Below, piece after piece: positions 4,630 to 14,667 of a DNA stretch of 64,000 nt; the stretch's first letter is position 1, and each line of letters opens with the position of its first letter. The notes below the pieces were generated by a model. The model was not told the DNA's origin, made no database searches, and saw nothing but the letters and a program-made list of their open reading frames with translations. The position numbers and the translations under genes are program-made. The stretch comes from an uncultured Methanosarcinales archaeon. Lineage in GTDB: Archaea > Nanobdellota > Nanobdellia > Woesearchaeales > CAYMBN01. The stretch is taken from contig CAYMBN010000005.1 in NCBI GenBank assembly GCA_964388715.1, positions 3,434 to 67,433 on the forward strand, in the 5' to 3' direction.

Positions 4630-5817
4630 ATGATATCAAAAATAAAACCATATTACAATCTAAAGGAAATAAAACAAACACTATTTAATCTAGATAAGGA
4701 TATAATCAACAAATTTGAAGAAAAATTTGCTAAAAAAACAAATTCAAAATTTGCAATCTCAAGCGCATATGGAAGAACAAGCTTATTTTCTTTTCTCACA
4801 ACCCAAAATATCAAAAAACAAAACATAGCTATTCCAGCATTTACTTGTATTGTAGTTCCAAACACAATAATAAGATCAAATAACAACCCATTGTTTATTG
4901 ATATTTCTCTAAAAGATTATAACATGGACTTAAACAAAAACAAGGAATCACAAACAACCAAAATCATAATGGCCACACATATGTATGGTTATCCAATGAA
5001 TATAAAAAAAATAAAAGAATCATCAAAAGTAAAAGATCAAATTATTATAGAGGATGCTTGCTTAGCTCCTTTAGCAAAAGATGTTGGAAAACATAGTGAT
5101 TGTTGTTTTTATTCTCTTAACATTAACAAACATATGTGCTGCTTTGATGGAGGAATGCTTACTACAAACAATCAAGAAACATATCAAAAAGTTAAAGCTT
5201 TTCAATCAAAAAACTTCAAAAAAACTTCAATATTAAATAAACAAAGAAAAAAACTATGGTTTATTGTATCATATTGTTTTTTTAATAATATTCCTTATAG
5301 CTTAATTTACAGATTATATAATAACTCAAAAATATTTAGAAAAAAGATTAGCAATTGGAATATTGAAAAAATAAACATGCCCAAAGATTTCAAAACTTTA
5401 CTAACAAAATTCCAAGCTAGATTAGGCTTAGCTCAATTAGAAAAGCTAGAAAAAAACATAGAAAAAAGAAAAGCAATTGTAAAAGTATATGATAAAACAA
5501 TCAAAAATAACAACATTATCAAACCACCATTAATAAAAGGAGCTGTTTATTCACATTATACAATAAGAATCAAAAACAGAGAAAACCTGATAAAATATCT
5601 TGAAAAAAAAGGTATTGGAATTGGGAGAAGCTTTGATTTTGATTATTCTATACCTTCTCTTAAAATATATAATAAATACAATCAAAACAACAAAAATTAT
5701 CCAAATTCAAACATTGCAGCCAAACAAGTTGTTAACCTACCAATAAGAGCAAATCTTAAGCTAAAACAAGCTATGTTTGTATCTAATTGCCTTAATGAAT
5801 ACACTGTTTCTAATTAA
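4630..5817 (+). CDS. DegT/DnrJ/EryC1/StrS-family PLP-dependent sugar aminotransferase
   Basis: Motifs AISSAYGRTSLF, IPAFTC, ATHMYGYP, IIEDACLA and SLNINKHM (PLP lysine) match the DegT family arrangement. Confidence 0.6.
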   Translation: MISKIKPYYNLKEIKQTLFNLDKDIINKFEEKFAKKTNSKFAISSAYGRTSLFSFLTTQNIKKQNIAIPAFTCIVVPNTIIRSNNNPLFIDISLKDYNMDLNKNKESQTTKIIMATHMYGYPMNIKKIKESSKVKDQIIIEDACLAPLAKDVGKHSDCCFYSLNINKHMCCFDGGMLTTNNQETYQKVKAFQSKNFKKTSILNKQRKKLWFIVSYCFFNNIPYSLIYRLYNNSKIFRKKISNWNIEKINMPKDFKTLLTKFQARLGLAQLEKLEKNIEKRKAIVKVYDKTIKNNNIIKPPLIKGAVYSHYTIRIKNRENLIKYLEKKGIGIGRSFDFDYSIPSLKIYNKYNQNNKNYPNSNIAAKQVVNLPIRANLKLKQAMFVSNCLNEYTVSN

Positions 5818-5900
5818 ATATAACCCAATTCAAAAAAGCAAAAAATATATAAAGAGATACATAATTCTATGTATGGGGTAAAATAACAAATTAACCAAAA

Positions 5901-6230
5901 ATGAAAAACAGAACTACAATACAATTATCAGAGGACCTTAGAAAAAAGTTAAGAACATTAGCTGCAAAAAGAGATATCTCTTATCAAAAATTATTATCAG
6001 ACATGATATCTGTCTTCAAAGAGGTTGACAAAGACAAAACAATAATCTCAATTCCATCTAAACTAGCTGACAAACTTCAACAAAACATAATCAAATCGGA
6101 TTTTAACACATTAAGTGAATATGTTACATTCTTACTTAGATTACTTTTATATGAAGATACAACTTCAAAAAAAGTAAATAACGAAGAAAAAATTCGAACA
6201 AGATTAAAAAAATTGGGATATATTGGGTGA
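5901..6230 (+). CDS. small tandem ribbon-helix-helix-like protein with CysD-like C-terminal tail (…EEKIRTRLKKLGYIG)
   Basis: Two segments with the beta-strand plus two-helix RHH pattern (TTIQLSEDLRKKLRTLAAKRDISYQKLL; TIISIPSKLADKLQQNI…LSEYVTFLL); C-terminus matches the tail shared with CysD. Confidence 0.4.
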   Translation: MKNRTTIQLSEDLRKKLRTLAAKRDISYQKLLSDMISVFKEVDKDKTIISIPSKLADKLQQNIIKSDFNTLSEYVTFLLRLLLYEDTTSKKVNNEEKIRTRLKKLGYIG

Positions 6231-6234
6231 TACT

Positions 6235-7032
6235 ATGAATCATTTAGACGAACTTGAAAGCAAATCCATTTTTATAATAAGGGAAGCATATAAACAATTC
6301 AAAAAAGTAGCTTTGCTTTGGTCAATAGGCAAAGATTCAAGCTGCCTTCTTTGGCTTGTTAGAAAGGCTTTCTATGGTAAAATTCCTTTTCCAGTAGTAC
6401 ATATTGATACAAGTTACAAATTTAAATCAATGATTGAATGGAGAGATGAATATGCAAAAAAATGGAATCTAAACCTAATTGTTGGAAGAAATGAAGAAGC
6501 TATCAAAGCAGGAATGGGACCAAAAAATAAATTAGCTTGTTGTACTGCATTAAAAACAGATGCACTCAAGCAAGTTATTGAAAAATACAAATTCAGAGCA
6601 TTATTTTTAGGAATAAGAAGAGATGAACATGGAGTAAGAGCAAAGGAAAGAGTTTTCTCCCCAAGAAACATTGATTTTAAATGGGATTATAAAAATCAAC
6701 CACCAGAATTATGGGATCAATATAAAGCAAAAGCAGAGGAAGAAGAACATATAAGAGTTCATCCAATGTTACATTGGACAGAGTTAGATATTTGGTTATA
6801 CATTAGAAGAGAAAAAATACCTATTATCCCACTATATTTTTCAAAAAATGGAAAACGTTACAGAAGCATTGGATGTGAATGTTGTTGCTGCCCTATTGAT
6901 TCAGATGCTACTGATATTGACAAGGCAATCGAAGAATTAAAAACAACAAAACAAGGTGAAAGAGCTGGAAGAGCACAAGACAAAGAAGAAGCTAATGCAA
7001 TGCAAAAATTAAGAGCATTAGGTTATATGTGA
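6235..7032 (+). CDS. cysD: sulfate adenylyltransferase subunit 2 (CysD, PAPS-reductase fold)
   Basis: HLDELESKSIFIIREAYKQF…LWSIGKDSSCLLWLVRKAF…PVVHIDTSYKF is collinear with bacterial CysD; the C-terminus (…ERAGRAQDKEEANAMQKLRALGYM) resembles the E. coli CysD C-terminus as I recall it. The ORF track starts at TTG 6223; ATG 6235 is the more likely start. Confidence 0.8.
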   Translation: MNHLDELESKSIFIIREAYKQFKKVALLWSIGKDSSCLLWLVRKAFYGKIPFPVVHIDTSYKFKSMIEWRDEYAKKWNLNLIVGRNEEAIKAGMGPKNKLACCTALKTDALKQVIEKYKFRALFLGIRRDEHGVRAKERVFSPRNIDFKWDYKNQPPELWDQYKAKAEEEEHIRVHPMLHWTELDIWLYIRREKIPIIPLYFSKNGKRYRSIGCECCCCPIDSDATDIDKAIEELKTTKQGERAGRAQDKEEANAMQKLRALGYM

Positions 7033-7038
7033 TAAAAA

Positions 7039-7371
7039 GTGATTAAGACAAGAGATAAAAAAAGAAGAACCATTGTAAAAACCCTTACTTGGAGAGTAAT
7101 TGCAACACTTGTAACTATTGAAGCACTTTATTTAATTAGTGATGATATATGGATCTCAATTGTTGTTGGCCTAGCTATTAACTTTATCAAATCTATTTTA
7201 TATTTTGTCCATGAGAGATTATGGGAACATATTGGATGGGGTAGAAAAAAACATCCACTGTCAAATATATTAATAAATAATCCATTAAAAAAAGAAGATG
7301 AAAAAATTATAAAAAATAAACTTAGAGAATTAGGATATTTTGGAGGAAGTTTTCAAAATGAACCAAGATAA
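7039..7371 (+). CDS. small 2-TM membrane protein (DUF2061-like) carrying an internal/C-terminal …[13 protein letters not shown] motif
   Basis: GTG start; basic N-terminus, two hydrophobic helices ([16 protein letters not shown] / [18 protein letters not shown]), then the shared tail motif; overlaps the cysN start by 14 nt. Confidence 0.4.
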
Positions 7372-8590
7372 TTTCAAATTTGTAATAGTAGGACACATTG
7401 ACCATGGCAAATCAACATTAATAGGAAGATTACTTTTTGATACAAACTCATTACCAGAAGGAAAAATAGAAGAAATCAAAGCAATATGTACATCATTAGG
7501 AAAAGATTTAGAATTTGGTTATGTTATGGATAATCTTGAAGAAGAACGTGATCAAAACATTACAATTGATACTGCACAAATATTTTTTAGAACCAAAAAA
7601 AGAGAATATACTATTATTGATGCCCCTGGACATGTTGAGTTTGTAAAAAACATGATTACAGGTGCTTCACAAGCAGAAGCAGCAATATTAATAGTTGATG
7701 CTGATGAAGGGGTACAAGAACAAACAAGAAGACATTCTTATATCTTAAGTATGCTTGGTTTAAAACAAGTTATTGTCGTAATGAACAAAATGGACCTCAC
7801 TAATTACAATGAAGAAAGATTTCATAATGTAAAAGAAGAATTAATTAAATTTTTAGATAGTATAAACATAAAACCAACTTACATTATTCCAATATCTGCA
7901 AAACAAGGAGATTTTGTTGCAAAAAAAACAGAAAATATGCCTTGGTACAATGGCTTAACTGTATTAGAAGCACTTGATACATTTGAAGCCAATGAATCAA
8001 ACAACAAAAAACCATTAAGATTTTGTGTTCAGGATGTTTACAAATGGGATAAAAGAATCATAGCTGGTAGAGTTGAATCAGGAATACTAAAAAAAGATAG
8101 TGAGGTTACCATCTTACCATCTAATGAAAAAACAATAATAGAAAGTGTTGAAGAATTTTTAAAACAAGACATCAACGAAGCAGAATCTGGAAAATCAACT
8201 GGTATAGTTACAAAAGATAAAGTTTTTGTTGATAGAGGAAATATAATTTGTGAACCAAATAATTTACCAACAGTTACAAATCAGTTTAAAGCACATATTT
8301 TTTGGATGAGTAAAGAACCTTTGAAAAAAGGAGAAAGAGTATTTTTAAAATGTTCAACTCAAAATACAATATGTGAAATTAAAGATTTTGTAAGAATACT
8401 TAACTCCTCAACTCTGGAAGTAAAACAGAATAATAAACAAATAGAAAACAGAGAAGTAGCAGATGTAATAATTAAAACAGATAAACCAATTGTAGTAGAA
8501 AATTTTAATAAAGTTGAAGAATTAGGAAGGTTTGTATTAGAAAGACTTAACACATGTGCAGGAGGAATCATTACAGAGGTTGAAGAATGA
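7358..8590 (+). CDS. cysN: sulfate adenylyltransferase subunit 1 (CysN, EF-Tu-like GTPase)
   Basis: G1 [35 protein letters not shown] and TRRHSYI match CysN-specific motifs; GGAGG at 7342-7346 precedes ATG 7358 (the track ORF starts at an upstream TTG). Confidence 0.8.
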
Positions 8591-9333
8591 TTATTGTTTT
8601 AGCTGTTGATGCTTTAGAATTTAATAAAGTTGAAGAATTTAATTGTAGAAACCTTAAACAAGAATATTTTGGAAAAACAAACATTTCTGAATTTTCTCAA
8701 CCAAGAACAATGGTACTTTGGAGTTCATTTATGACTGGCCAAAATAAGGAAAAAGATGTCCTAAGTAATGGGAACAAAGAAATGTGGAACAAAAAATGGG
8801 ATATAAAAGAAACATTATTCTCAAACTTCCAAAACCCCATAATACTTGACCTCCCTGGATTCTCTTATAACCTAAAATCTCATGAAAAATCAAGAGAATT
8901 GCTCAAAGCTTTCTTTGAAACAGAAAATCCTGAGGAAAAACAAAAAATTAAAAATCAATATAACCAAGATGCATTTGAACATCATAAAAAAATAAAAAAA
9001 CAATTCCTTGAAACACTAAAATCAAACCAATACGACTTTGTTTTAGGTTATTTTAGTATTATTGATGTAATTGGACATTTAAACTTTGGAAACACAACCC
9101 TAATGAAAATGTTATATAAGGATATTGATGAAATTGCAGATGAAATAAGAAAAATACCAAATATTAAGCTGATTATACTATCTGATCATGGAATGAAAGC
9201 AATAGGTATGTTTGGAGATCACTCAGAATATGGCTTTTGGAGCACAAACTTTAAAAAGCTTGAGAATCCACAGATAACAGACTTTGCTAATATCATAACT
9301 GAATGTAAAAATGAAAATCAAAATCAAGGATGA
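8587..9333 (+). CDS. alkaline-phosphatase-superfamily protein, degenerate paralogue of the downstream NPP-like enzyme
   Basis: Collinear with the 9547 protein ([10 protein letters not shown] vs IIGIDGASF; LIILSDHGM vs FIISDHGF), but the metal/nucleophile positions are substituted. The ATGA overlap with the cysN stop suggests translational coupling. Confidence 0.4.
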
Positions 9334-9520
9334 AATAATAAAGAAAATACAAGATAGAATTAAAGATAATGATGAATTCAACAATGTAGAAGATTATATT
9401 AATTACATTCTTAAACAAGTTATAGAAAAATTAAACAAAAAAAACACAGACAAATCAACCTATTCAAAAAGAGATGAAGATAAAATAAAACAAAGACTAA
9501 AAAGTCTTGGTTACATGTAA
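9311..9520 (+). CDS. small RHH-like protein with CysD-like C-terminal tail (…EDKIKQRLKSLGYM)
   Basis: 69 aa; N-terminal beta-helix-helix pattern ([17 protein letters not shown]…VEDYINYILKQVIEKL) and the shared tail; overlaps the end of the previous ORF in another frame. Confidence 0.4.
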   Translation: MKIKIKDEIIKKIQDRIKDNDEFNNVEDYINYILKQVIEKLNKKNTDKSTYSKRDEDKIKQRLKSLGYM

Positions 9521-9546
9521 ATATTACATAAAAATAGGTAATCACT

Positions 9547-11079
9547 ATGGATAAAATTATAATTATTGGTATAGATGGAGCTTCTTTTAATATATTAGAT
9601 AAATGGATCAAAAAAGGATCATTACCAACATTCAAAAAATTGAAACAGAAAGGAAGCTATTGTAAATTAACCAGTACAATCCCACCTGTTACTCCACCAG
9701 CCTGGACATCTATCACAACAGGAAAAAACCCAGGCAAACATGATATCTTTGATTTCCAAAAAATTGATTCAGAACACAAATTTTCCTTAATTAACTCAAC
9801 AACAAACAAAGCAAAGGATTTCTGGGAATATACAAACAAAAAAACAATACTTATCAATTTCCCAACATACTTTCCACCAAAAAAAATAAATGGTTACATG
9901 GTGAGTGGCATGCTCACCCCAGGCATTAGTTCAAACTTCACTTATCCTAAAGAACTAAAAAAAGAAATCCTCAACATAATTCCAGATTACATCATTGAAG
10001 TTGATGAAAACCTTTACAAAGGAAGAATAAAAGAATTTTTATCTGACATTGACAAAATGACTAAACAAAGACATAAATTAATTAAACACATGCTAAAAAA
10101 AGAATGGGACATTTTTTTCACTGTAATCACTGGCTCAGATCGAATACAACATCTCGCTTGGAACAACCAAAATCTGCTAAATTATTACAAAAAAGTTGAT
10201 TCCATCTTAGATGACATAATAAAAAACCATGTTAAAGATAATGTAACCCTATTTATAATATCTGACCATGGTTTTACAGAAGTGAACAAAATATTTTACG
10301 TAAACACATTCTTAAAACAAGAACAAATTCTTTTTACAAAAGAAAAAACTAACAAAAAAATCCTAAAAAAAGTAGGTTTAACAAGAGAAACAATAATTAA
10401 TTTACTTCAAAAATTACATATTGATCTCACAAAACTAAAAATCCTTCTTCCAAACAAGATCAAAAACCTACTTCCACAAGAAGATCAAACACTTTATCAA
10501 AGTGTTAACTGGTCAAAAACAAAAGCATTTATGTTTGGTTTTGGTCAGATTTTCATTAATTCAAAAAAACGTTTTAAAAATGCTCCTTTATCTGAAAAAC
10601 AACATAATAAATTTAAAAAAGAATTAATAAAAATATTAAGTAATATTAAAGACCCACAAACAAATAAAAAAATAATAAAAAAAGTTTACACAAATGAACA
10701 AGCATACTCAGGAGATTATGCAAAAAATGGTCCTGATCTGATAATTGAACTTGAAAATGGTTATGCTTTTTCAGAAAAAATAACAAATCAACACATTGAA
10801 AAATCTGATTTTATTAATGCTGATCATGAAAAACAAGGAATTTTAATGTCTTATGGAAAACAAATTAAAGAAAATAACAATATGTCTAACAAAAATATAG
10901 TTGATTTTGCACCAACAATGTTACACATACTAAATTCAACAATTCCAAATGACATTGATGGTAAAGTTATAAAAGATATATTCAAGAAAGACTCAGAATT
11001 ATGTAAAAAAAGTGCCAAAATCAAAAAAATCACAGAAAAAGAAAATATTAGCACTGCATTGTCAGATATCAATATTTAA
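9547..11079 (+). CDS. alkaline phosphatase superfamily enzyme, type I phosphodiesterase / nucleotide pyrophosphatase (NPP)-like
   Basis: IIGIDGASFN…TSTIPPVTPPAWTSITTG (nucleophile Thr motif)…ISDHGF…DHE match PF01663-type AP-superfamily signatures. Confidence 0.55.
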   Translation: MDKIIIIGIDGASFNILDKWIKKGSLPTFKKLKQKGSYCKLTSTIPPVTPPAWTSITTGKNPGKHDIFDFQKIDSEHKFSLINSTTNKAKDFWEYTNKKTILINFPTYFPPKKINGYMVSGMLTPGISSNFTYPKELKKEILNIIPDYIIEVDENLYKGRIKEFLSDIDKMTKQRHKLIKHMLKKEWDIFFTVITGSDRIQHLAWNNQNLLNYYKKVDSILDDIIKNHVKDNVTLFIISDHGFTEVNKIFYVNTFLKQEQILFTKEKTNKKILKKVGLTRETIINLLQKLHIDLTKLKILLPNKIKNLLPQEDQTLYQSVNWSKTKAFMFGFGQIFINSKKRFKNAPLSEKQHNKFKKELIKILSNIKDPQTNKKIIKKVYTNEQAYSGDYAKNGPDLIIELENGYAFSEKITNQHIEKSDFINADHEKQGILMSYGKQIKENNNMSNKNIVDFAPTMLHILNSTIPNDIDGKVIKDIFKKDSELCKKSAKIKKITEKENISTALSDINI

Positions 11080-11117: not shown

Positions 11118-12521
11118 ATGCAAAAGAAAAAAGTAATCTTCATAACATGCTATATTAAAATAGCAAAAAAACAGTTTGCAATAGGTAAAAAACTACAAGC
11201 AAAAGGAATAGAAGTAATATTTGCCAACTACTCAAAAGAATGTGCAAACTTTTTCAAGAAAAATAATGCTAAATGTATATATATTCCAGACCACCTTAAC
11301 AAAATCAAACTTAAGAAACCAATAAAAGAATACCTTAAATACATTGAAAAACAATACAATACTCCTAGTTTAAACTTATTAATTGCAGGAGACATTGATT
11401 TACAAAGTATGAAACGTGAAAAAGCACTAAAGATTCTTATCAAAAATTTCCTTTTCTGGGAAAAATTCTTCAAAGAAAATAAAACAGATATCATGATTGG
11501 TGGCATAGAAAGAATATTAAATGAAGCACCAAGGTATGTTTGTAAAAAAAACAAAATAAAATACCTTGGATGGGTTAGTGCCCAGGTAAAAGACCACTTT
11601 ATGCTTAGTGAAGATCATATGGGACATTGGGATAGATTAAACAAATATTGGAACAAAAACAAAAATAGAAAATTAACAACAAAAGAAAAAAAGAAAGTAA
11701 AAGAATTCATTGACTCAATAACAAAAACAGTCAAACAAAAACATCTTGTTCAATCTATTCCAGCAACAAAACCTGCAAGAGTAAACCTTTCAAACATTAA
11801 ATTATTTTTACAAAGACTGTGGATAAACACATTTGTAGAAAAAGGAAGAAACCCTTACTCAAACATTATCAAGATAGGTTTTAAACAATTTATGAGATCA
11901 ATAAGAAAACACTTTGCTAAACACTTATATTCAAAACCAAATTATAAAGAAGATTTTATATTTTTTCCAATGCATGTTTTCTGGGATGCACAAATAATTG
12001 TTAGAGCACCACAATTCTCTAATCCAGTCTGGCTTATTGAATACATTACAAAGTGCATACCTTCTTATTATAAATTATATGTAAAAGAACATCCAAATGA
12101 CATTGGTGGCAATAAGTTAAAAACATTAAATGAAATAAGAAAAATTCCTAATGTAGTATTAATAGACCCCAATGAACCTAGTAGTAATCTCATCAAAAAA
12201 TCTAAAGCTATAGTTTGTATCAACTCAACTGTTGGTTGGGAAGGAATTTTATATGACAAAAAAGTAATCAATTTAGGCAATGTATTTTATGATATTTCAG
12301 GACTTGTATGGAAAATAAGAAATCTTTATGAACTTATTGACATTTTCAAAATAGTAGAGCAGAAAACTCTTATAACTCAAGAAAAAAAATATAGATTTAT
12401 TAACGCTGTCCTTAACTCTGTTCTTGAAGGAAGTCTTGATTTCTTTAATGACGAAAGAATTACTTTAGATGACAAACACATTACAAGTATAGCAAATGAA
12501 ATTTATAATCACTTTCTGTAA
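11118..12521 (+). CDS. capsule polysaccharide biosynthesis protein, KpsC/KpsS-like (Capsule_synth family, putative beta-Kdo-type retaining transferase)
   Basis: FFPMHVFWDAQII corresponds to the PLQVxxDSQI signature of KpsC/KpsS; C-terminal VCINSTVGWEG region also similar. Confidence 0.45.
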   Translation: MQKKKVIFITCYIKIAKKQFAIGKKLQAKGIEVIFANYSKECANFFKKNNAKCIYIPDHLNKIKLKKPIKEYLKYIEKQYNTPSLNLLIAGDIDLQSMKREKALKILIKNFLFWEKFFKENKTDIMIGGIERILNEAPRYVCKKNKIKYLGWVSAQVKDHFMLSEDHMGHWDRLNKYWNKNKNRKLTTKEKKKVKEFIDSITKTVKQKHLVQSIPATKPARVNLSNIKLFLQRLWINTFVEKGRNPYSNIIKIGFKQFMRSIRKHFAKHLYSKPNYKEDFIFFPMHVFWDAQIIVRAPQFSNPVWLIEYITKCIPSYYKLYVKEHPNDIGGNKLKTLNEIRKIPNVVLIDPNEPSSNLIKKSKAIVCINSTVGWEGILYDKKVINLGNVFYDISGLVWKIRNLYELIDIFKIVEQKTLITQEKKYRFINAVLNSVLEGSLDFFNDERITLDDKHITSIANEIYNHFL

Positions 12522-12608: not shown

Positions 12609-14057
12609 ATGAATTTAAATCAAAAAACAAATATTGTAAAAGGTGGAGTGTATTTAACAGCATCAACATTTATAGCAACAATATTGGGCTATTTATTATA
12701 CTTAATCTTAGCAAGAATTCTTGGTCCTGCAAATTTTGGAATATATGGTGTTGTAATAGGTATCTTAAGTGCAATATCAAAAATATTATTATCATCAATT
12801 CAACAAACAACATCAAAATTTGTAAGTGAAAACCAAGAAAATGCACCCAGTATAAAAAACAGATTACTTTTTATCATATTCTTAATAGGAACTTCTGTGT
12901 CAATAATTTATGCATTCTCATCAAAAATAATAGCATATTTACTCAATGACCCTTCACTAACAATACTAATTGCAATCTCAGCATTTATTATTATTCCAAA
13001 TTCACTTTATGGAGTTTTACAAGGATATCTTAATGGACAAAAACAATTTAAAAAACAAGCTTTCATAAGAGTAGTGTATGCTGTTCTAAGGGTTTCTATA
13101 ATAATTACAGCAGTATTGTTAGGTTACTCAGTAGGTGGTGCAATAGCAGGTTTCCTTATTGCTACAATACTAACTTTTCTACTAAACTATGTAATTGTTG
13201 GTGACTTTTTCGCACCTAAAAAAATCAAAATAAGAAAAAGAGATGTCCTTAAATTAGTAAGCCCTATTATAGGAACAACTGCTATCCTATACGCTCTCCC
13301 TGTAATTGGAACAGCATTTGTAAAATCCTTACTAGACGTTACCATCGCAAACACATATGCAGGGTTTTATACTGCTGCAAACTCAATTGGTCAAATACCA
13401 TTTTTAATATTAGCATCTTTACCAGTTGTACTCTTCCCAACAATAGCAAAACTAAACTATGAAAAAAATTCAGAAAAAAAAGCATTTTACGTAAAAGAAA
13501 GTTCAAGATTCACAATTATAATTTTATCTCTGTTTTGTTTCCTTATCGCTGCAACTTCAAAAAGTGTTGTAGAACTGCTTTACTCTAAACAATATTACTT
13601 AACAAGTGAAATATTGATATTCTTAATATTTGGATTTGGATTCCTTACTTTTATGAATATTGCACTAACAATATTAAATAGTGTTGGTAAACATAAAACA
13701 AGCCTTAAGATAGGTCTAACAACAATGATTATAACAATAATACTTAATTTTATTCTCATACCTAAATTTAATATAATTGGAAGTGCTTTATCATTAACAA
13801 TTGCCACATTTATAGGAGTAATATTAAGCATCCTAATCATTCAAAAAAGTATAAGTAAAGTAATGAGCATCACTAGCTTTATAAGAATCATAGCAAGTGG
13901 ATTAATTATTTTTGGAATTACAAAATTAATTGAAGTTAAAGGTCTTATGCTTATTCCTCTTTATGCAGGTATATCAATTGTTTATTTACTTCTATTAATA
14001 ATAATGAGAGAAATTAAAAAACAAGACATTCTTATTATAAAGAAAGTTTTTTCTTAA
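12609..14057 (+). CDS. polysaccharide biosynthesis protein / Wzx-like flippase (MOP superfamily), second copy
   Basis: 482 aa, about 14 TM segments, N-terminal pattern typical of Wzx/MurJ-like exporters. Confidence 0.55.
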   Translation: MNLNQKTNIVKGGVYLTASTFIATILGYLLYLILARILGPANFGIYGVVIGILSAISKILLSSIQQTTSKFVSENQENAPSIKNRLLFIIFLIGTSVSIIYAFSSKIIAYLLNDPSLTILIAISAFIIIPNSLYGVLQGYLNGQKQFKKQAFIRVVYAVLRVSIIITAVLLGYSVGGAIAGFLIATILTFLLNYVIVGDFFAPKKIKIRKRDVLKLVSPIIGTTAILYALPVIGTAFVKSLLDVTIANTYAGFYTAANSIGQIPFLILASLPVVLFPTIAKLNYEKNSEKKAFYVKESSRFTIIILSLFCFLIAATSKSVVELLYSKQYYLTSEILIFLIFGFGFLTFMNIALTILNSVGKHKTSLKIGLTTMIITIILNFILIPKFNIIGSALSLTIATFIGVILSILIIQKSISKVMSITSFIRIIASGLIIFGITKLIEVKGLMLIPLYAGISIVYLLLLIIMREIKKQDILIIKKVFS

Positions 14058-14667
14058 GATAGTTATTAATCTCCAACTGAACACTATCAAACCTTCCTTT
14101 AGTATTTATCTTCACAAAAAGACCACCTAATCTAGAATACAATCTACCAAATACTTTATCCTTAAAAATAAAATAATTAAGATTATATTCATTTGCTCTC
14201 TTAAAAGCTTGTTCTGGTTTTAGATAAAGTAAAAAAGCAACATCTGGTTTAGGCACAATACTATAAAAGAACCTTACAAATAAACTCTTCTGCTTGTTCA
14301 CCAAAAATAAATAATGTACAAGAAGATCATAAAAATATCTATCACAAACAACCACTTTCCCCGAAATCTTATTAATGAAAACAACAAAATAAAAATGTAT
14401 AATATCAAAAAACAAAGAAATCCCTCTCAAGAAATGCAACACAGATTTCAAAAATGATTTCTTTGAAACATTAAACTGTGATTTCATCACTTTTTTATAA
14501 GTTTTACTTTTTCCTTTTATCATAACTCTAGAAAAAAAGCCAAACAAAGAAAAATGTACCATATGTAATGAAGTTACTTTATAACCTTTTAACTTAAGAA
14601 AATTAATAACTTCTTTCATATGATTTGATTTCCCTGTTCCATCCACACCTGAAAAAGTAATTATCAT
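14035..14667 (-). CDS. thymidylate-kinase-like P-loop kinase
   Basis: Walker A FSGVDGTGKS, DRY motif and lid region PDVAFLLYLKPEQAFKRANE collinear with dTMP kinase. Confidence 0.45.
   Translation of the reverse strand: MIITFSGVDGTGKSNHMKEVINFLKLKGYKVTSLHMVHFSLFGFFSRVMIKGKSKTYKKVMKSQFNVSKKSFLKSVLHFLRGISLFFDIIHFYFVVFINKISGKVVVCDRYFYDLLVHYLFLVNKQKSLFVRFFYSIVPKPDVAFLLYLKPEQAFKRANEYNLNYFIFKDKVFGRLYSRLGGLFVKINTKGRFDSVQLEINNYLKKKLSL

Follow-up and report, generated by a model that had tools for sequence, protein, structure and literature searches.

Within the 64,000-nucleotide stretch of archaeal DNA analysed here (the window, taken at its full length), which is AT-rich (~28% GC) and lies on contig C5 of a 1.3-Mb genome (95.8% complete), the two subunits of an ATP sulfurylase, CysD and CysN, are encoded in a single run of genes with two enzymes of the alkaline phosphatase (AP) superfamily, here termed AP1 and AP2. 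At the level of sequence and genomic context, CysD and CysN are intact, both AP-fold enzymes are intact and carry a threonine nucleophile (Thr-type), the genes are coupled as an operon, no route through 3′-phosphoadenosine 5′-phosphosulfate (PAPS) or sulfite is found, and the setting is one of glycan genes. We reasoned that the locus may be a kinase-less archaeal sulfate-activation module serving PAPS-independent sulfation, in which the Thr-type AP-fold enzymes would use adenosine 5′-phosphosulfate (APS) itself, and we give this proposal an even chance of being right.

The features concerned, with genes called from an open reading frame (ORF) listing and Pfam/NCBIfam scans of the window proteins and all on the + strand, are as follows:

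5846–5853, + strand: TATA-box-like TATATAAA, 48 nt 5′ of the RHH start codon; a candidate operon promoter, read from the sequence
5901–6230, + strand: double ribbon-helix-helix (RHH) protein, 109 aa, with an LGY tail (RHH_1, 21.3 bits)
6235–7032, + strand: CysD, short archaeal-type, 265 aa (PF01507, 148.6 bits; NF003587, 361 bits)
7039–7371, + strand: DUF2061 two-helix membrane protein, 110 aa, with an LGY tail (PF09834, 52.3 bits)
7358–8590, + strand: CysN, archaeal-type GTPase subunit, 410 aa, no APS-kinase domain (TIGR02034, 360 bits)
8587–9333, + strand: AP1, minimal AP-superfamily enzyme, 248 aa (PF01663, 30.7 bits)
9311–9520, + strand: small RHH-like protein, 69 aa, with an acidic linker and the tail ...RLKSLGYM (orthologues; weak NikR RHH profile match)
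9547–11079, + strand: AP2, AP-superfamily enzyme resembling nucleotide pyrophosphatases/phosphodiesterases (NPPs), 510 aa (PF01663, 146.6 bits)

Neighbouring genes across 5901–11079, through AP2, overlap or stand 4–26 nt apart, and we therefore treat the run from the RHH gene to AP2 as a single operon; the CysN start lies 326 nt past the CysD end within this same operon, and the CysN stop overlaps the AP1 start by 4 nt. A sequence-only reading of this DNA had named CysD, DUF2061, CysN and the two AP-superfamily genes at 6235–11079, all of which are present; to these we add two genes that it did not mention, the RHH gene directly upstream of CysD and the 69-aa ORF between AP1 and AP2. No clear operator-like palindrome was seen upstream of the RHH gene in 5760–5930.

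The gene at 8587, AP1, had been taken in that reading for a degenerate paralogue that may have lost its metal ligands, a description that the alignment contradicts. In 23 orthologous sequences D8, T41, D160, H164, D200, H201 and H212 are invariant, a set that comprises the six metal ligands of an NPP-type two-metal site plus the Thr41 nucleophile, and R40, H99, R103, H132 and H133 are invariant as well. The predicted AlphaFold2 (AF2) structure is confident (pLDDT 94.7), and its nearest solved folds (VIA-align) are ENPP7 (5udy; Z 18.5 over 211 aa, 3.1 Å) and Xac NPP (7mw8; Z 18.1), followed by alkaline phosphatases, iPGM and sulfatases. AP1 thus shares with the NPPs (Xac NPP, ENPP1/4/6/7) the fold (Z 17–18.5), the two-metal site and a Thr nucleophile at the same sequence positions, but it is ~150 residues smaller than any solved member, cytoplasmic, genetically locked to an ATP sulfurylase and equipped with a helical hairpin bearing the invariant H99, R103, H132 and H133. 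A truncated pseudogene is ruled out by the invariant catalytic residues together with the confident fold: AP1 is a conserved minimal archaeal family, not a degenerate paralogue. A homologue search returned 531 proteins of ~240 aa with 57–76% identity, from Woese-, Pace-, Aenigm-, Undin-, Alti- and Micrarchaeota, Methanofastidiosa, Thermoplasmatota and Hadarchaeota and, within Methanosarcinales, from ANME-2 (anaerobic methanotrophic archaea, ANME), Methanoperedens and Methanothrix. No fused forms occurred among the best 150 matches of a profile search of 1.84 billion representatives, and the same search brought up a sister family of ~285–320 aa, one member of which lies in a glycan cluster.

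The association of AP1 with this type of ATP sulfurylase recurs far beyond the window. With the AP1 alignment as query, a scan of GTDB at one genome per species recovered 79 loci in more than 10 archaeal phyla, and in all of them, where the contig allows, AP1 is preceded by a ~266-aa CysD and a ~410-aa CysN without a kinase domain, in the constant order (tail protein)–CysD–(TauE or DUF2061)–CysN–AP1. The commonest distance between the CysN stop and the AP1 start is −4 nt (29/77 loci), and AP1 is the most constant partner of this CysDN type. A CysDN ATP sulfurylase was said earlier to be unexpected in a reduced archaeon; the module is in fact common in such genomes. Between CysD and CysN, 24 loci have a TauE/SafE permease, which links the module to sulfur oxyanions, and 15 have DUF2061; the sharing of one slot by permease and DUF2061 ties the latter to a membrane or sulfur-oxyanion role. 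DPANN relatives that carry a CysN-CysC fusion have no AP1, and AP1 and the CysC domain appear mutually exclusive. Of 50 module-bearing genomes, just 12 showed an APS kinase, and in the other 38 none was found. AP1 thus takes the operon place of CysC and plausibly its product-consuming role.

What becomes of APS is bounded by what else the genome encodes, and whole-genome family searches extended to the entire 1.3-Mb assembly the earlier statement that the window holds no APS kinase, sulfite reductase or recognisable sulfotransferase. The best APS kinase (PF01583) score anywhere in the genome was 18.1 bits, below the cut-off. Sulfotransfer_1 and Sulfotransfer_3 (PF00685, PF13469) had no matches in the genome while their controls responded; Sulfotransfer_2 and Stf0 (PF03567, PF09037) had none either, but here the controls were silent. 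Neither sulfite reductase (NIR_SIR) nor sulfatase (PF00884) was matched in the genome, and no APS/PAPS reductase was found, the only other PAPS_reduct-like gene (contig C1) being rejected as such because it is a TtuA/NcsA tRNA thiolase. With neither that reductase nor sulfite reductase found, no complete assimilatory pathway was found elsewhere in the genome. A TauE permease is encoded on contig C10. Soluble family-I pyrophosphatase (PF00719) was not found in the genome, and a membrane H+-pyrophosphatase (H+-PPase) is encoded at C8:48524–50482 (950 bits). A gene for a 210-aa P-loop protein at 14035–14667 (−) matches thymidylate kinase weakly (Pfam 37.9 bits; TIGR00041 34.5 bits, where the cut-off is 83); we asked whether this Tmk-like gene might be a hidden APS kinase and set it aside, since that weak match is its only one and PF01583 did not pick it up.

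Both subunits of the ATP sulfurylase keep their signature motifs. CysD exceeds the cut-off of its subfamily model NF003587 (361 vs 195 bits), falls below the equivalog and strict models (NF009214, 291 vs 413; TIGR02039, 270.6 vs 396.6) and aligns with PDB 1ZUN_A at E 3.6e-65, residues 232–263 of 1ZUN_A having no counterpart in it. Its PP-loop S-x-G-K-D-S motif (S30, G32, K33, D34, S35) is invariant across 46 sequences, and the AF2 model predicts a confident core, with the last ~25 residues flexible and bearing a short helix at 255–261; the protein ends ...MQKLRALGYM. CysN matches PF00009, PF03144 and PF22594, as an EF-Tu/EF1A-type GTPase with beta-barrel domains II and III should, with TIGR02034 above its cut-off of 336, and the G1, G3 and G4 motifs GHxDHGKST, DAPGH and NKMD are invariant, the P-loop in the window being the EF1A-like GHIDHGKST. 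It scores near-equally against 1ZUN_B (281.5 bits) and archaeal elongation factor 1A (aEF1A) 1JNY (280.8 bits); the housekeeping EF1A is a separate gene on contig C9, 37% identical to CysN.

Contrary to the earlier label of a bacterial-type enzyme, CysD and CysN belong to an archaeal-type lineage. Bacterial CysD proteins are 36–42% identical to the window CysD, and in the CysD tree a 100/100 branch parts the canonical bacterial sequences (NodP, Acinetobacter, Streptomyces, Ralstonia) from a supergroup that comprises the CysNC-partnered CysD of DPANN archaea, a short plasmid-borne CysD of Skermanella, a clade without CysN and the AP1-linked clade that includes the window. The CysN tree gives the same archaeal-type group, about equally distant from canonical bacterial CysN and from aEF1A, and the branches that split the two subunits from canonical bacterial CysD/NodP and CysN/NodQ are long and 100%-supported. 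In archaea the short form of CysD is widespread, with DPANN, Thermoplasmatota and Methanosarcinales among its hosts. Lateral spread, suspected earlier, is plausible: CysD occurs in 10 and AP1 in 2 of 60 sampled sister families, and the AP1-linked clade has short branches that do not follow taxonomy, a patchiness that fits repeated transfer among archaea. A recent import from bacteria does not fit this pattern; the spread is not recent, because the GC content is unremarkable.

Several members of the supergroup have features of their own. A sister CysD clade (L019, L021 and L023/L105, from genomes G059, G026 and G047) keeps the LGY tail and has AP-fold partners, with the housekeeping EF1A only and no CysN. 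The plasmid pSR-1 of Skermanella rosea (L113, NZ_CP086112.1) encodes a 265-aa CysD of the archaeal-type lineage with the tail RLRSSGYL; a CysN-CysC fusion comes next, and a gene for a classical sulfotransferase is close by. Two CysD genes of this lineage are interrupted by inteins with LAGLIDADG homing-endonuclease domains, at L034:4484–6607 (a Euryarchaeota metagenome-assembled genome, MAG) and L111:4658–6700 (a MAG labelled Saccharibacteria), at different positions of the PAPS_reduct domain.

AP2, the second AP-fold enzyme, matches its PF01663 profile over positions 2–331 of 342, and its site (D10, T49, D198, H202, D240, H241, H427) is intact and conserved across 14 orthologues, with an N-terminus in which the ligand Asp and the Thr nucleophile line up with those of PhnA and ENPP1. 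In an hhalign comparison AP1 matched the AP2 family with 97.8% probability, every catalytic residue falling in register. Both proteins have Thr at the nucleophile position and lack the C/S-x-P-x-R formylglycine motif. AP2 is found in 13/79 related loci, with a true LGY tail on two copies, and we regard it as a candidate glycan-modifying transferase. Proteins of the sulfatase family recur near the module, some of them fused to GT2, and because those that partner this CysD lineage carry W-T-x-P-S-H in place of C/S-x-P-x-R, we count them as Thr-type AP-fold proteins like AP1 and AP2. Three such domains in proteins of 829–1233 aa beside the module (L057:301–2790, L107:1–2750, L089:9531–13232) are apparently fused to GT2, as judged from their clustering with GT2 proteins. 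Most AP2 proteins end in a basic K-I-x-x-L-K-x-x-G-K-I (A5 alignment; the window copy, 11008–11079, ends ...ISTALSDINI), the spacing of which resembles that of the LGY tail, and this motif may derive from the same putative docking helix by divergence.

In the pathway that we envisage, CysD, a PP-loop adenylyltransferase driven by GTP hydrolysis on CysN, would convert ATP and sulfate to APS, as the strong family membership of both subunits suggests. Because the genome lacks APS kinase, APS/PAPS reductase, sulfite reductase and classical sulfotransferase, APS itself would be the working intermediate. Its consumers would be the Thr-nucleophile AP-fold enzymes, namely AP1, translationally coupled to CysN in the place that CysC holds in cysDNC, and its larger NPP-like paralogue AP2: attack of the Thr on the APS sulfur would release AMP and leave a sulfo-enzyme, from which the sulfuryl group would pass to a sugar or a lipid-linked glycan built and flipped by the products of the flanking genes. 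The membrane component, DUF2061 here and TauE in other genomes, may serve sulfate entry or membrane anchoring; the two RHH proteins may regulate the operon; and a [KR]L[KR]xLGY helix may be a portable docking element that links regulators, membrane protein and AP-fold enzymes to LGY-type CysD. The earlier suggestion that APS feeds surface sulfation, not assimilation, is still the best reading, given the missing PAPS and sulfite routes, the glycan island and the AP-fold partners.

The flanks of the operon agree with the earlier description of a glycan-biosynthesis island, sugar genes lying upstream (DegT aminotransferase, GT1, PMT_2) and downstream (a Capsule_synth/KpsS-like gene, a flippase, UGDH and an NTP-transferase). 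Among these are:

4630–5817, + strand: DegT/PseC-like sugar aminotransferase (PF01041, 165.6 bits)
11118–12521, + strand: Capsule_synth (KpsS/KpsC-like) glycan transferase (PF05159, 61.6 bits)
12609–14057, + strand: Wzx/MurJ-type polysaccharide flippase (PF01943, 86.8 bits)

Across the 79 loci the recurrent neighbours, beside AP2 (13/79), are NAD epimerase/dehydratase (26/79), flippase (25/79), UGDH (14/79), NTP-transferase (11/79), methyltransferase (9/79), GT4 (9/79) and DegT (7/79). In the sister genome G010 a radical-SAM/SPASM gene resembling anaerobic sulfatase-maturating enzyme (L016:6199–7347) replaces AP1 after CysN, and a GT4 gene follows it.

A short C-terminal helix is common to several of the operon's products. 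Four window proteins (the RHH protein, CysD, DUF2061 and the 69-aa protein) have [KR]L[KR]xLGY[MIF] at the C-terminus, and the pattern [RK]L..LGY occurs 7 times in 754,822 ORF residues (all 5,956 ORFs of at least 50 aa, whole genome); the occurrences within 10 residues of a C-terminus number 4 genome-wide, all of them in this 3.6-kb stretch of the operon. The RHH protein, with a marginal RHH_1 match (cut-off 20.5) and CopG-type matches, ends ...RLKKLGYIG; in relatives the gene immediately 5′ of CysD encodes an orthologue (57–64% identity), the 69-aa protein is a homologue of its second half, and it is a probable operon regulator. The 69-aa protein itself matches the NikR RHH domain weakly (E 0.29–0.4), and the small tailed proteins in general look like an RHH domain followed by an acidic linker and the tail. 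They occur singly or in pairs in 58/79 loci (69 just upstream of CysD, 13 just downstream of AP1), with L63, L66, G67 and Y68 invariant among the orthologues of the 69-aa protein in these loci and a tail consensus of EDEEKVKERLRALGYLD or ...KIKxRLKxLGYL. The DUF2061 protein covers the full PF09834 profile (1–52, against a cut-off of 23.1 bits) with two hydrophobic helices; a word-based homologue search with it returned 3 proteins, P0392 and P0393 are other tailed forms, and in the literature found no function is described for DUF2061. Elsewhere the tail is also present on some AP2, sulfatase-like and other DUF2061 proteins, whereas in loci with an EGY-ending CysD we saw no tails on accessory proteins.

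We considered which protein receives these tails. CysN was dropped as a general receptor, an idea taken by analogy from the ribosomal stalk tail, which contacts aEF1A: the tails are kept in three sister genomes without CysN, where tailed CysD and AP-fold proteins accompany only the housekeeping EF1A. AP1 is an unlikely receptor, as G010 and G005 keep the tails without it. A predicted complex of CysN with a small tailed protein scored 0.00, to which we attach no weight either way. Because LGY-type CysD is the only constant companion of the tail, we suggest that the tail docks on the CysD core or bundles with the tail of CysD itself. A comparable logic is known from the CysE-CysK cysteine synthase complex, where the short C-terminal tail of one protein docks on the partner enzyme; that tail is mimicked by unrelated proteins, a regulator among them, which thereby gain the same site. 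The proteins here are different, and the LGY tail is a ~12-residue amphipathic helix.

Set against known systems, the locus combines familiar parts. Like bacterial CysD-CysN(-CysC) and rhizobial NodP/NodQ (1ZUN), it pairs a PP-loop CysD with an adjacent EF1A-like GTPase CysN, keeps the PP-loop and G motifs and ends CysD in ...GY[FM]; the sulfate activated by NodPQ is dedicated to a secondary glycoconjugate. It differs in its archaeal-type lineage (a 265-aa CysD without 1ZUN residues 232–263, a CysN P-loop of GHxDHGKST), in having no CysC domain or gene and an AP-fold protein as third gene, and in a tail that is LGY, not EGY, and common to accessory proteins. In Halobacterium salinarum, Agl30 (VNG1056C) and Agl31 (VNG1057C), AP-fold sulfatase-like proteins, are required for N-glycan sulfation (PMC11980604), and it is these genetics that make AP-fold sulfotransferases credible. 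Like AP1 and AP2 they are AP-superfamily proteins in an archaeal glycosylation cluster, and they are implicated in adding sulfate to glycan sugars and not in removing it. Agl30 and Agl31 resemble sulfatases (about PF00884 type), AP1 and AP2 resemble NPPs (PF01663), and the known likeness is one of superfamily and glycan cluster. Haloferax Agl7 was not used as a precedent, the main text of the paper giving no family for it. Sulfate activation with atypical downstream enzymes is described in Methanothermococcus thermolithotrophicus, in a study whose authors raise non-canonical sulfotransferases in methanogens; that pathway runs on a homo-oligomeric Sat-type ATP sulfurylase, APS kinase, PAPS reductase and a DHH-family PAP phosphatase, none of which is present here (PMC10322725). 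We found no paper linking CysDN to AP-fold partners. What is new here is a CysDN sulfate-activation system with AP-fold enzymes replacing the kinase and with components that share a portable tail.

Several points weigh against PAPS-independent sulfation by the AP-fold enzymes. We know of no APS-dependent O-sulfotransferase, AP-fold enzymes are mostly hydrolases, and the functional roles proposed for this protein lineage draw on sequence and context. AP1, at 57–76% identity across phyla, is unusually conserved for a glycan-tailoring enzyme, which suggests a universal small substrate such as pyrophosphate (PPi), or APS with water. An APS kinase is present in 12 of the 50 module-bearing genomes; the same CysDN type occurs without AP1 in the sister genomes G010 and G005, so that the link is one-sided and AP1 is not indispensable to CysDN; and in the Thermoplasmatota locus L026 the module stands among unrelated genes. 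The kinship of AP1 and AP2 to Agl30 and Agl31 is known at superfamily level, and the work on the latter states no sulfate donor and describes no link to CysDN (PMC11980604).

The main rival, which we think unlikely, casts AP1 as a product-clearing pyrophosphatase that would hydrolyse the PPi made by CysD and so pull the unfavourable ATP-sulfurylase reaction, leaving APS to AP2 or sulfatase-like transferases in DPANN and to APS reductases in methanogens and ANME. Such a role would fit the very high conservation of AP1 whatever the genomic context, the occurrence of the module both in glycan islands and in unrelated contexts, the invariant cationic R40, H99, R103, H132 and H133, which suit a polyanion, and the missing soluble family-I enzyme, and PPi removal was rate-limiting in a coupled ATP sulfurylase assay in M. 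thermolithotrophicus (PMC10322725). The genome, however, already has its membrane H+-PPase, AP1 stands in place of the APS-consuming CysC and apparently excludes it, G010 and G005 have this CysDN type without AP1, and the nearest folds are NPP-type diesterases, not pyrophosphatases. The position of AP1 exactly where CysC would be, with the same apparent exclusivity, could also be read as PAPS synthesis without an ATP-dependent kinase, a phosphoryl group (for example from PPi) moving to the APS 3′-OH through a phospho-Thr and both CysD products being removed at once. AP-superfamily enzymes do form phospho-Thr/Ser intermediates and include phosphomutases and phosphotransferases, but the searches brought up no enzyme in the genome that would use PAPS, whether sulfotransferase or PAPS reductase, with the Sulfotransfer_2 and Stf0 controls silent, and we know of no such activity; we rate this reading as barely credible.

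Two further explanations concern CysD and its product. That the module does not act on sulfate at all, with a CysD-like enzyme adenylylating another oxyanion or substrate and NPP-like proteins acting on a nucleotide diester, which is the other nucleotidyl chemistry allowed for in the earlier reading, would accord with CysD scores under the NCBIfam equivalog cut-offs, the missing 32-residue segment of 1ZUN CysD and the closeness of the AP1 and AP2 folds to nucleotide pyrophosphatases. We consider it improbable, since over its entire core CysD shares 40–52% identity with genuine bacterial CysD/NodP and keeps every conserved motif, TauE sulfur-oxyanion permeases lie inside the operon in those 24 loci, and sister lineages are fused to APS kinase and adjoin sulfotransferases. 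Ordinary assimilatory sulfate reduction, with the reductive steps carried out by unrecognised enzymes, is how archaeal CysDN is regarded in the literature (PMC6286981), and among the module's hosts are many methanogens and ANME with sulfite reductases of their own. This too we find very improbable for the present genome, where at 95.8% completeness no APS/PAPS reductase or sulfite reductase was found and where the operon lies among glycan genes, coupled to AP-fold enzymes without redox chemistry. A last variant, remote in our estimation, would make the tail Tyr chemically active: by analogy with the flexible C-terminal-tail Cys of the homologous PAPS/APS reductases, which attacks the (P)APS sulfur, the tail Tyr, whether on CysD or on the small RHH 'carrier' proteins, might accept the APS sulfuryl group at the CysD active site to give sulfotyrosine, a protein-borne, PAPS-free relay. 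Thr-type AP-fold enzymes, which resemble arylsulfatases in chemistry, might then pass the group from this aryl sulfate to glycans or strip it as a regulatory signal to the RHH repressors.

The biosynthesis of the sulfated glycans and lipids of archaea is mostly unknown, and to our knowledge all textbook biological sulfation runs via PAPS. Direct use of APS by the Thr-type AP-fold enzymes, if true, would constitute a second, PAPS-independent sulfation route and a new catalytic use of the AP fold, in which GTP-driven APS synthesis is coupled directly to AP-fold enzymes, widespread and with no APS kinase in most hosts. It would also change the reading of 'cysDN' in DPANN, ANME, methanogen and Thermoplasmatota metagenomes, where such genes are now counted as evidence of sulfate assimilation. 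The LGY tail offers a testable handle on the wiring among the enzymes, the membrane component and the repressors of the pathway. A layout that recurs across so many archaeal phyla probably marks an unstudied way of sulfating cell-surface sugars.

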